Source: Escherichia coli (GTDB lineage Bacteria > Pseudomonadota > Gammaproteobacteria > Enterobacterales > Enterobacteriaceae). From it: a stretch of 64,000 bases of DNA. The notes beneath the pieces were generated by a model that did not search any database, had not been told where the DNA came from, and worked only from the letters and a program-made list of their open reading frames with translations. The position numbers were made by a program, and so were the translations under genes. Below, one piece after another: positions 17,234 through 20,555 of this stretch. Each line of letters begins with the position of its first letter. Within the stretch, counting starts at the first letter, position 1. The DNA is taken from the NCBI RefSeq assembly GCF_003991155.1, contig NZ_CP031293.1. The stretch is one strand, 5' to 3'.

Positions 17234-17865
17234 AACGACGTGACACCATCGTGCGCTACACCGCGCCGGAACGTATCAACCACTGGATCACCGCCTTCTG
17301 CTTCATCCTGGCGGCGGTGAGCGGGCTGGGCTTTTTGTTCCCGTCCTTCAACTGGTTGATGCAAATCATGGGCACACCGCAGCTGGCGCGCATTCTGCAC
17401 CCGTTTGTCGGCGTGGTTATGTTTGCCTCGTTCATCATCATGTTTTTCCGTTACTGGCATCACAACCTAATCAATCGGGATGATATCTTTTGGGCGAAGA
17501 ATATTCGTAAGATCGTCGTCAACGAGGAAGTAGGTGACACCGGGCGTTATAACTTCGGTCAGAAATGCGTTTTCTGGGCGGCGATTATTTTCCTGGTTCT
17601 GCTGCTGGTGAGCGGCGTGATTATCTGGCGTCCTTATTTTGCGCCTGCTTTCTCAATCCCGGTGATCCGATTCGCGTTAATGCTGCATTCATTTGCCGCA
17701 GTGGCGTTAATTGTGGTTATCATGGTGCATATCTACGCCGCCCTTTGGGTAAAAGGCACGATTACCGCCATGGTGGAAGGATGGGTGACCAGCGCCTGGG
17801 CGAAGAAACATCACCCGCGCTGGTACCGTGAGGTCCGCAAGACAACGGAAAAGAAAGCTGAATGA
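17230..17865 (+). CDS. fdoI: Formate dehydrogenase-O cytochrome b556 subunit
   Basis: 211 aa, four TM helices, start overlaps the fdoH stop. Confidence 0.92.
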
Positions 17866-18791
17866 GTATTCGCATAATCCCGCAAGATGAGCTGGGTTCG
17901 AGCGAGAAACGTACGGCGGATATGATTCCGCCGTTATTGTTCCCTCGGCTCAAGAATTTATACAACCGCCGCGCCGAGCGTCTGCGCGAGCTGGCAGAAA
18001 ATAATCCGCTGGGTGATTACCTGCGCTTTGCTGCGCTTATCGCCCACGCCCAGGAAGTGGTGCTGTACGACCATCCGCTGGAGATGGATCTGACCACGCG
18101 CATTAAAGAAGCCAGCGCACAAGGCAAGCCCCCGCTGGATATTCACGTTCTGCCGCGTGATAAGCACTGGCAAAAGCTGCTGATGGCGCTGATTGCTGAG
18201 CTGAAACCTGAAATGAGCGGCCCGGCGCTGGCAGTGATTGAGAATCTGGAGAAGGCATCGACTCAGGAGCTGGAAGATATGGCCAGCGCACTGTTTGCCT
18301 CTGATTTCTCGTCCGTCAGCAGCGATAAAGCGCCGTTTATCTGGGCTGCGCTGTCGCTCTACTGGGCGCAGATGGCTAATCTGATCCCCGGCAAAGCCCG
18401 CGCTGAATACGGCGAACAACGTCAATATTGCCCGGTATGTGGCTCTATGCCGGTGTCCAGCATGGTGCAAATTGGCACCACTCAGGGGCTGCGTTACCTG
18501 CACTGCAACCTGTGTGAAACCGAATGGCACGTAGTGCGCGTAAAATGCAGCAACTGTGAACAGAGCGGCAAACTGCATTACTGGTCGCTGGATGACGAAC
18601 AGGCCGCGATTAAAGCCGAAAGCTGCGATGACTGCGGCACTTACCTGAAGATTCTTTATCAGGAAAAAGAACCGAAAGTTGAAGCCGTGGCAGATGACCT
18701 CGCCTCTCTGGTACTGGACGCGCGAATGGAGCAAGAAGGCTATGCCCGTAGTTCCATCAACCCGTTCCTGTTCCCGGGTGAAGGGGAGTAA
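17862..18791 (+). CDS. fdhE: Formate dehydrogenase formation protein
   Basis: 309 aa with CxxC pairs ([28 protein letters not shown]); overlaps the fdoI stop. Confidence 0.92.
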
Positions 18792-18827
18792 TCTCTGACG
18801 TTTTCCGGGTGGCGCAGGTCGCCCGGA

Positions 18828-19208
18828 TTACAGCTCATAGGGTGTGACGACACCTGCTATTCCCGCAAAATCTCTCGTATTTCGCGTTACCAGTTCAAAG
18901 CCATAAATCTGTGCTGTTGCCAGAATAATGGCATCTGGAAGTTTCATTCTATACTCCTGCCTTAAAGCAACGCTTCGTTCCGCGATATCCTGCGAAATCC
19001 CAATAACGTTAAACGCACTCATTGCAATCCGTGTGCGATGTTCTTGATCATATTTTTTTGCGCCAACCAGCACCTCCATCCATGTGACCAGACTAATCGC
19101 ATTCTGTAGGGGCCATGCCTCCAGAGCCTGTTTTGCCTCAATTCGTCCGCTGAACAAATCGATAAGGATATTGGTATCAAAAAGCGCAGTTCTTTTTGCC
19201 ATTACCAT
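18828..19208 (-). CDS. vapC: PIN-domain ribonuclease toxin, VapC-like
   Basis: 126 aa; N-terminal DTNILID acidic motif typical of PIN/VapC; start overlaps the stop of the upstream RHH gene (ATGGTAA). Confidence 0.75.
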
Positions 19209-19444
19209 TCCTCACGCAGCTTACGCTGATATTCGACACCATCTTCCTCACACCCTTGCCAGATACCAAAAGCACTGGATATTGTCGTTTTCGATTGATT
19301 TTCCAGATATTGATCTACAGCTTCTCGTAATAGCTCTGCGCGAGGAAGATTGCGCTGCACTTTGAGATCATCAAGTCGCTTAATCACCTCATCGGATAAA
19401 TCGAGTAAAATTCTGCCCATATCCATACCTGCCATAGCGCTCAT
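19202..19444 (-). CDS. Ribbon-helix-helix (CopG-like) antitoxin, VapB-like; YiiF-like
   Basis: Start chosen at the ATG preceded by GGAGG ([24 protein letters not shown]...); track ORF extends to 19498. N-terminal beta-strand and helices typical of RHH; stop overlaps vapC start. Confidence 0.65.
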
Positions 19445-19663
19445 ATATACCTCCAGTATATCATTTTTGAATGCATGGTGAGCAAAATACTCTTGCAAAA
19501 CCTTTAAAGAAAGCGCATTTACGCATCATTTTTTATTTTTGCGAGGCGTTTTCCAGATATGATGTAACAGTTGCAGTTATTATAAGTTCAAGTAAAACAA
19601 CCTTGTATTAATACCAGAATAAGGGCATCTGGTTTTTTATATTCAAGAATAAAAAATTTTTTG

Positions 19664-19882
19664 TCATTCCTTATGCTCCTTACACTGATCATCGACACCC
19701 ACTGTCTCCCCCTTTTGCCTGCCTCCCTTTGCTTTACGCACCGGGAATTGCTGACGTTCCAGATATTGCTCTACCGCTTCGCGTAAAATTGCAGATCGTG
19801 AAACCTTACGCCAGCCCCTAAGCTTGTTCAGCCGTTTAATTGCCTCTTCTGATAAATGAAGAAAAACCGTATTCATCGCCAT
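19664..19882 (-). CDS. yiiE: Ribbon-helix-helix (CopG-like) DNA-binding protein, 72 aa
   Basis: MAMNTVFLHLSEEAIKRLNKLRGW...; track ORF starts at TTG 19888, the ATG at 19882 gives the 72-aa length recalled for K-12 yiiE. Confidence 0.75.
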   Translation of the reverse strand: MAMNTVFLHLSEEAIKRLNKLRGWRKVSRSAILREAVEQYLERQQFPVRKAKGGRQKGETVGVDDQCKEHKE

Positions 19883-20310
19883 TACCAATACCTTATATAT
19901 GACTCATTAATGTATGTGCGAAAATTACGCCGAAAAATCATTTAAAAAAAGCGGATTTTTGCATGCTGTTTTGTTTTTGCGAGACGTTTTCCAGAAATAA
20001 TAAGAACGTTGCAGTTGTTTCATTTGTTAATCAAAAATGGTTTAGTTATCGCCCAGGATGAGATATGGGTGCTATAAATATATTATATTCAGGGATATTT
20101 ATTTTTTGATTGGGTCTTCATTTGCATAATCTGAATGGTGTACCCGAAAAATGTCAGCATCCTAACAGCACCAGGATTTAAGGTGAAATTAATCATCCAT
20201 CACAGACCGGTCTTTACTTGCTCGTCGTTATAATTTTGTTGGTAACAGTTTGGGAAACAAGGAATTCCTTCCGGAACACCCCCGGTATCATCCGATAGCA
20301 TTGACGTCAA

Positions 20311-20336
20311 TCATCGGCGCGACGATGAGTTTTTTT
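20311..20336 (+). terminator. Candidate intrinsic terminator (hairpin plus T-run) on the plus strand in the AT-rich intergenic region
   Basis: tcatcg-gcgcga-cgatga stem-loop followed by gttttttt; no annotated plus-strand gene upstream. Confidence 0.3.
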
Positions 20337-20555
20337 AATCGCATCATAGGGTGGCAACGGTCAGCACGATACGGGTCATAGCAAAACTCCTGCACAGGCG
20401 GCCACTATGCCGCTTTCACAGGAGTTCTGAATGCTAGTGCTTTCTGTATGGCATCGCCATGCCCCTCGCGGCTAAGCGCCTGCACACATCTCTCTTTGAA
20501 TGTCATTTTTGCAATGCATTGTCCGAATTCTGATAATCCTAATGAGTTTTACCCG

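Follow-up and report, generated by a model that had tools for sequence, protein, structure and literature searches.

Predicted CRP-S sites upstream of the duplicated antitoxin genes yiiE and vapB (yiiF) of Escherichia coli

In a 64,000-nucleotide stretch of an Escherichia coli genome (NCBI RefSeq assembly GCF_003991155.1, contig NZ_CP031293.1), hereafter the window, two genes for ribbon-helix-helix (RHH) proteins, the vapB/yiiF-like antitoxin gene of a vapBC operon and its paralog yiiE, are each preceded by a copy of a conserved element. Each copy probably carries a CRP-S site, a non-canonical 22-bp cAMP-CRP site that activates transcription only with the co-activator Sxy (TfoX), and we infer from the sequence that both promoters depend on Sxy and CRP. 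This identification suggests that yiiE and vapB(yiiF)-vapC are members of the E. coli competence regulon.

The two cores on the + strand, TGCGAGGCGTTTTCCA at 19540-19555 and TGCGAGACGTTTTCCA at 19978-19993, are both exact matches to TGCGA-N6-TTCCA. For CRP-S sites of E. coli, Sondberg et al. 2019 quote the motif of Sinha et al. 2009 as 5'-T4G5C6G7A8-6N-T15T16C17C18A19-3' (PMC6728893). On the sense strand of the genes, the half-sites read TGGAA-N6-TCGCA, two pentamers separated by a 6-bp spacer in both copies. The pattern TGCGA-N6-TTCCA occurs twice in the window, both times at the elements, as compared to 0.22 matches expected, and twice in 4 kb of K-12 MG1655, upstream of yiiE and yiiF, as compared to 0.03 expected. 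Sondberg et al. 2019 note that such sites in E. coli lack symmetry (PMC6728893). In both copies, the TGCGA-type half is proximal to the gene and the degenerate half is distal, which is also the arrangement at the sxy promoter, where TGCGA is the proximal half and TTCCG the distal one (PMC6728893). Enterobacterial CRP-S half-sites without C6 always have G6 and never T6 (Cameron & Redfield 2006, PMC1635313). Here, the proximal half TCGCA (the reverse complement of TGCGA) carries C6, the distal half TGGAA carries G6, and neither carries T6.

For comparison with known sites, the K-12 MG1655 promoter sequences were inspected directly. The mutationally validated site of the sxy promoter in MG1655 reads TTTCGGAAAGAGCCTCGCAAAT, and the copies at the locus studied here read ATCTGGAAAGCGCCTCGCAAAT in E. 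coli LR-51 and ATCCGGAAAGCGTCTCGCAAAA in E. whittamii. The string TTTGCGAGG is common to the ppdD, sxy and comEA sites and the yiiE and yiiF sites, while TTTGCGAG(G/C) is common to the ppdD, comEA and comM sites. The comM site, TTTGCGAGC, is an exact TGCGA-N6-TTCCA. Judged by these comparisons, the elements sit squarely among the sites of genes treated in the literature as CRP-S regulated.

The leaders contain a second conserved block, the hexamer TAnnnT, found 65-66 nt downstream of the T of TGGAA in 41 of the 42 copies scored (TATTTT, TAATTT, TATGTT, TAAATT, TAGATT and TAAGCT, among others). This offset holds across three non-homologous leader types, those of vapB/yiiF, yiiE and the HigB2-like genes. 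If TAnnnT is the -10 hexamer, the site would be centered at about -70.5 to -72.5 relative to the predicted start, a class I position. Class I sites at -62, -73 or -100 have been reported or are expected for CRP-S promoters. The -35 region is poor, as expected for an activator-dependent promoter, and a scan for consensus sigma-70 promoters found none on the gene strand. A sigma-70 promoter within the core itself was rejected, as hand inspection of either strand revealed no -10 at a workable distance.

The core is bipartite and asymmetric with a variable spacer, and its GG-to-GC spacing exactly fits a sigma-54 (-24/-12) promoter, TGG-N10-GC. However, a weight matrix from 50 sites bound in chromatin immunoprecipitation (ChIP) scores the core at 1.7-5.3 bits, as compared to 7.9-21 (median 16) for the bound sites themselves, and about 1 in 400 random 17-mers scores as well as the core. 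Moreover, no sigma-54 peak lies at yiiE or yiiF in K-12 in either ChIP-seq or genomic SELEX (systematic evolution of ligands by exponential enrichment), and a gene for an enhancer-binding protein is absent nearby. We rejected a sigma-54 promoter on the matrix score and the missing peaks; despite the fitting spacing, it is highly improbable. Hand comparison with known motifs gave nothing convincing for the marbox proteins, Cra, PurR, IHF, DnaA, canonical CRP, ArgR or IclR/AllR.

The CRP-S identification would place a weak sigma-70 promoter, with the conserved TAnnnT as its -10 and a poor -35, downstream of a CRP-S site centered near -71. CRP at this class I position would recruit RNA polymerase via the alpha C-terminal domain. 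The genes would remain silent until the cell produces Sxy and has a high cAMP level; yiiE and vapB(yiiF)-vapC would then be switched on together with the DNA-uptake genes, and the HigB2-like/NadS operon of other strains would be switched on likewise.

A genome-collection scan with RHH alignment yielded 36 loci. The start codon of vapB or yiiE follows the core at a distance of about 110 nt in Citrobacter, Salmonella diarizonae, Klebsiella, Kluyvera, Trabulsiella, Lelliottia, Franconibacter, Pseudocitrobacter and E. whittamii. Among about 30 species, there is almost no change in TGGAA and TCGCA, their A-rich flanks and the pentamer spacing, whereas the bases separating the pentamers differ freely (CGG, TGC, GTG, CAC, CAT and others); in the 42 copies scored, the spacing never changes and the spacer sequence does. 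Such constant pentamers around a variable spacer are, on this alignment, the footprint of a CRP-type bipartite site. The conserved block could also be read as part of an RNA element or a small open reading frame (ORF), in the 5' leader or antisense. An antisense frame, F-C-E-x-L/F-S-R, is present in all copies, some of the changes look synonymous, and small + strand ORFs span both copies. However, there is no conserved start codon, stop positions and lengths vary, in several of the ORFs the motif is not preceded by an ATG, GTG or TTG, and the variable positions are four consecutive bases rather than every third. RNAalifold found 0 conserved pairs in 18 leaders, and the search of Rfam gave no match. 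A leader RNA structure and an antisense or sense small ORF were rejected on RNAalifold, Rfam and the missing conserved start and stop codons, and such an origin of the block is extremely unlikely.

The core is also found before other toxin-antitoxin genes. In E. coli strains LR-51 and SCPM-O-B-8794, in Pseudocitrobacter and in K. spallanzanii, it precedes a gene for a 103-aa toxin, of the HigB-2 family by PDB match, and one for a helix-turn-helix antitoxin that matches NadS in NCBIfam. It likewise precedes the HigB2-like/NadS operon at a Salmonella Senftenberg locus, where an RHH gene is missing from that position. Within E. coli, only the locus studied here carries the element, in at most 4 places per genome. 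A dispersed repeat or mobile-element end was rejected on this confinement, the plasmid matches being chromosome-like records or chance, and a degenerate-pattern scan of viral contigs gave chance-level matches only. Several PLSDB 'plasmid' records carrying the locus are chromosome-sized or chromosome-like. In addition, yiiF loci of E. coli or Citrobacter type occur on contigs labelled Bacillus coahuilensis, uncultured Robinsoniella and Chryseobacterium sp., which probably reflects assembly contamination.

The preliminary description of this stretch had read the element as an operator through which the RHH proteins regulate themselves. In type II toxin-antitoxin systems, an RHH antitoxin usually represses the promoter of its own operon, and the element is equidistant from both RHH genes. 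However, the core matches the CRP-S motif exactly and is asymmetric, with no inverted or direct repeat to seat RHH dimers. The same core stands before HigB2-like/NadS operons, including the Salmonella locus without an RHH gene. Near-identical sequences are CRP-S sites at sxy, ppdD and comM, and the core is also present at the unlinked comEA promoter. The DNA-reading β-strands of the two RHH proteins differ (RILLDL versus TVFLHL) while the cores are nearly identical, which, from general knowledge of RHH proteins, argues against a shared operator. Furthermore, the core lies about 60-80 nt upstream of the predicted -10 and not over the promoter. We therefore consider it improbable that the element is an autoregulatory operator of YiiE and VapB/YiiF. 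A better operator candidate than the duplicated core is the conserved palindrome ATATAC-N5-GTATAT over the ribosome-binding site and ATG of vapB, a block that falls in the short 5' leader if the predicted start holds. RHH autoregulation, if present, would more likely act via this palindrome.

As the preliminary description stated, a repeated element of about 45 bp lies upstream of both RHH genes. Two 43-mers on the + strand, tttttgcgaggcg...gttgcagtt (19536-19578) and tttttgcgagacg...gttgcagtt (19974-20016), agree at 35 of 43 positions by hand count, and the equal distance to the genes is exact, the T of TGGAA lying 111 nt before each ATG (19555 to 19444 and 19993 to 19882). The similarity extends beyond the 43-mers to 104 ungapped nt at 74% identity (19478-19581 versus 19916-20019, a spacing of 438 nt). 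Local alignment of the two upstream regions gives a score of 59.5, as compared to 11.9 +/- 1.8 (maximum 19.5) in 300 shuffles; the similarity is therefore not AT-rich chance. Nor is it lost in orthologous loci, as the element is kept in about 30 other enterobacterial species and about 5,400 E. coli genomes. Upstream region and gene align collinearly as a whole unit, and the units of 438-459 bp stand head-to-tail and are homologous in both coding and non-coding parts. The collinear alignment supports the earlier proposal of paralogous promoter regions arising from a tandem duplication, and the two proteins are indeed RHH paralogs (RHH_1/CopG, 44% identical). Identity peaks at the 22-bp core (20/22); the remaining non-coding segments reach 50-68% and the coding sequences 56-64%. 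The preservation of the core, despite the divergence of the proteins and flanks, would fit selection on the site.

The origin of the two units, on the other hand, is the reverse of that first proposed, namely duplication of an RHH cassette with one copy later coupled to vapC. The tandem duplication stands, but the order does not. Other genera carry a single vapB-vapC behind the CRP-S site, and a relic of a second vapC copy survives downstream of yiiE, with a local score of 20 as compared to 9.4 +/- 1.3 in shuffles (0/300 reach 20) and a 19-mer identical at 18 of 19 positions to 18920-18938. Because of this relic and the single vapB-vapC of other genera, the duplicated unit is, on the alignment, the whole CRP-S-promoter-vapB-vapC module, whose upstream copy lost vapC and became yiiE, an orphaned vapB paralog. 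On the + strand, the 19-mer of the relic also makes up a CCAGA/TCTGG hairpin with a T-run behind it.

Further losses are seen in other strains. In K-12 (K-12-type strain JCL301), the vapC downstream of yiiF is gone except for two remnants, about 50 nt from the 5' end and about 60 nt from the 3' end, which flank what we read as a REP/BIME-like (repetitive extragenic palindromic/bacterial interspersed mosaic) element. With vapC destroyed, YiiE and YiiF of K-12 are therefore both orphan antitoxins left from the duplicated vapBC. E. whittamii and B2-type E. coli (for example, Nissle 1917) lack yiiF-vapC; the junction falls inside the CRP-S site, between CTGGAAAACGCCTCGC and GCAATACGAG, and is fused to the vapC 3' end. 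Homology between loci with different cassettes also switches at the 22-mer: the HigB2 copy of LR-51 and the yiiE copy of E. whittamii are 91% identical to its left and 44% to its right, and the reverse holds for the yiiE copy of LR-51. These breakpoints raise the question of whether the 22-mer is mainly a recombination site or hotspot for insertion, swap or deletion of toxin-antitoxin cassettes, with no transcriptional role. However, a recombinase gene is missing, the 22-mer lacks the dyad core that characterizes sites of tyrosine or serine recombinases, and the element occupies one locus only in E. coli. Ordinary recombination, by homology or microhomology, between directly repeated copies of a selected regulatory site would explain the breakpoints, whereas a recombination site would leave the near-identity to CRP-S sites at unlinked competence promoters unexplained. 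We give little credence to a purely recombinational role, and recombination between direct repeats of a selected regulatory site, here the predicted CRP-S site, is the simplest reading of the junctions.

Several points weigh against the CRP-S identification. The motif specifies just 10 bases, and the start site, hence the class I position, is predicted from the conserved TAnnnT alone. In Salmonella Senftenberg, the copy has degenerated to TGGAT/TCGCA and no TAnnnT stands at the expected distance, and the half-sites of Cedecea and Kosakonia match at 4/5 positions only. Gene conversion could be an alternative cause of the likeness between the two copies. Moreover, no expression, start-site or binding data for these promoters were found, including in the supplements of three start-site studies. 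The accessible literature, which excludes the tables of Sinha et al. 2009, where a report may exist, yielded no link of yiiE or yiiF to Sxy. CRP-S genes are silent in the laboratory (PMC3330819). Meanwhile, yiiE is among the H-NS-bound genes and is induced 2.5-fold by SlyA overproduction (PMC5797941), SELEX with the RpoS holoenzyme gave a weak peak between yiiD and yiiE (PMC5493296), and yiiF was reported active in 'transcription termination' (bicyclomycin) data sets (PMC9308461). These reports fit promoters that are silent in the laboratory.

Table 1. Features of the locus in the window and predicted or known CRP-S sites of K-12 MG1655 used for comparison.
Feature	Position	Strand	Sequence or basis
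Predicted CRP-S site (22-mer), vapB/yiiF-like promoter	19537..19558	-	Sense strand atcTGGAAaacgccTCGCAaaa; exact motif, conserved across genera, like the sxy/ppdD/comEA/comM sites
Predicted CRP-S site (22-mer), yiiE promoter	19975..19996	-	Sense strand ttcTGGAAaacgtcTCGCAaaa; exact motif; 20/22 identical to the other copy
Predicted -10 TATTTT, vapB/yiiF-like promoter	19484..19489	-	Conserved TAnnnT; predicted start near 19476-19479
Predicted -10 TAATTT, yiiE promoter	19922..19927	-	Conserved TAnnnT; predicted start near 19913-19915
Palindrome GATATAC-TGGAG-GTATATA over Shine-Dalgarno and ATG of vapB	19444..19462	-	Conserved in all vapB orthologs; candidate VapB/VapBC operator
Two tandem duplication units	~19202-19663 and 19664-20110 (overall 19202..20110)	-	Repeat alignment, collinearity, identity profile
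Relic of second vapC copy	19580..19644	-	Between the yiiE stop codon and the yiiF-copy promoter; aligns to the vapC coding region
fdhE	17862-18791	+	First gene in the local order
vapC, PIN-domain toxin gene	18828..19202	-	Pfam PIN E 4.6e-19; PDB 7BY2 chain B 'Ribonuclease VapC' E 9e-63; RefSeq annotation
vapB/yiiF-like RHH antitoxin gene, 80 aa	19202..19444	-	Pfam RHH_1 above cut-off; PDB 2K5J (YiiF), 7BY2 chain A
yiiE, orphan RHH paralog, 72 aa	19664..19882	-	Pfam RHH_1 E 1.2e-11; 44% identical to the VapB-like protein
sxy promoter site (MG1655)			ATTTGCGAGGCTCTTTCCGAAA
ppdD promoter site (MG1655)			ATTTGCGAGGCGTTACGAAGAA
comEA (ybaV) promoter site (MG1655)			TTTTGCGAGGCGGCTTCAGGA
comM (yifB) promoter site (MG1655)			TTTTGCGAGCATCATTCCACCG; exact motif
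yiiE promoter site (MG1655)			TTTTGCGAGGCGTTTTCCAGAA; b3889; site at 4,079,178-193 of NC_000913.3, predicted start about 4,079,256
yiiF promoter site (MG1655)			TTTTGCGAGGCGTTTTCCAGAT; b3890; site at 4,079,616-631 of NC_000913.3, predicted start about 4,079,694

Window positions 18800-20560 are 100% identical to E. coli strain 2016C-3878. The vapC ATG overlaps the vapB stop codon (TAATG, 19200-19204), and vapB-vapC has the layout of a type II vapBC operon, an RHH antitoxin gene directly followed by an overlapping PIN toxin gene. Two further stretches resemble the core. A weaker look-alike at 20505-20524 on the - strand (ggacaatgcattgcaaaaat; 80% over 20 nt, CGGAC-N6-TTGCA), just downstream of a 617-aa ORF, may be a decayed site or chance. 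Within the vapB-like coding sequence, the codons for QYLENQSK (ATATCTGGAAAATCAATCGAAAA, 19288-19310) resemble the CRP-S core (ATATCTGGAAAACGCCTCGCAAA, 19538-19560 and 19976-19998) at 74-78% over 23 nt, which we treat as chance. The 617-aa ORF itself (20556-22409, - strand) contains a CKSAKDR (CX5R phosphatase-like) motif and has no significant match in Pfam, NCBIfam or the PDB sequences. RefSeq annotates its 3' half as 'transposase' and the rest as a partial pseudogene, and K-12 keeps the first ~39 codons only. This ORF stands where other strains have the hydrolase and HigB2-like/NadS genes.

In those strains, and in other genera, the hydrolase gene encodes an alpha/beta-hydrolase and is divergent; it has a LexA box (CTGTATGGATATACAG) and lies about 56 nt upstream of the predicted CRP-S site. 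If its promoter is TTTTCA-17-TATAAA, as predicted by hand, the CRP-S site would be near -70 for this gene too, and the layout mirrors that of sulA (LexA box), CRP-S site and sxy in MG1655. The CRP-S site may serve both divergent promoters of the fabY-fdhE locus.

The yiiE and yiiF genes encode uncharacterised 'y-gene' regulators of K-12, and the perfect, deeply conserved CRP-S site predicted before each gives a testable expression condition, Sxy together with cAMP-CRP. The identification would also correct an error that comes naturally in annotation, namely to take a conserved repeat in front of an antitoxin gene for the operator of that gene. If true, vapBC and, in other strains, HigB2-like/NadS would join the short list of competence-wired toxin-antitoxin systems, which bears on the open question of why such systems are co-induced with DNA uptake. 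More tentatively, the fabY-fdhE intergenic locus of Enterobacteriaceae is possibly a conserved 'socket' driven by Sxy and CRP-S, with a hydrolase promoter under SOS control at its flank, into which toxin-antitoxin cassettes (vapBC, HigB2-like/NadS, orphan RHH) would have been repeatedly plugged, multiplied and lost, with the 22-bp site acting as both shared activator site and recombining repeat. Should this be true, toxin-antitoxin modules would belong regularly, and under selection, to the competence regulon of enterobacteria, in the way that toxTA does in Haemophilus.

Among known proteins, the closest counterparts are PDB 7BY2/7BY3, a CopG-family regulator with 'Ribonuclease VapC' (the VapB-like protein of the window at E 1e-36, VapC at E 9e-63), and 2K5J, the nuclear magnetic resonance structure of YiiF itself; these entries concern the proteins only and say nothing on the upstream CRP-S element. 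The FitAB operator is an inverted repeat bound by two RHH dimers. The palindrome at the vapB ribosome-binding site fits such operators of RHH-PIN systems, whereas the duplicated core, about 90 nt further upstream than the palindrome, has no such symmetry.

The element is most readily compared with the CRP-S site of sxy (tfoX) (Jaskolska & Gerdes 2015; Sondberg et al. 2019, PMC6728893). Both are asymmetric (C/T)GGAA-N6-TCGCA sites with the TGCGA-type half proximal to the gene, and they share the flanking GCCTCGCAAA(T/A). By hand count, the sxy site is identical at 19 of 22 bases to the HigB2 copy of LR-51 and at 17-18 of 22 to the window copies. Moreover, sulA-sxy and, in other genera, the studied locus are alike in that a divergent gene has its SOS (LexA) box immediately upstream of the site. 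However, the distal half is CGGAA at sxy as compared to the consensus TGGAA here, mutagenesis has established Sxy dependence at sxy whereas it is predicted here, and the downstream genes are of the toxin-antitoxin type here, whereas at sxy the downstream gene is the regulator itself. At ppdD, comEA (ybaV) and comM (yifB) of K-12 (Cameron & Redfield 2006, PMC1635313; Sinha et al. 2009), all sites lie 105-140 nt before the start codon, as do the window copies. ppdD and comEA share TTTGCGAGG with the window copies, and comM, which reads TTTGCGAGC, is an exact TGCGA-N6-TTCCA, as both of them are. These genes differ in serving DNA uptake and processing, and the half-site orientation differs at comM. 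Finally, the toxin-antitoxin operons under CRP-Sxy control, chpSB, higBA, hokD and hicAB P1 of E. coli and toxTA (HI0660/HI0659) of H. influenzae (PMC11951105), likewise place toxin-antitoxin genes behind a competence-type CRP-S promoter, which at the studied locus is predicted. They represent other families and loci, whereas the locus described here carries vapBC (RHH and PIN), an orphan RHH gene and, elsewhere, HigB2-like/NadS.

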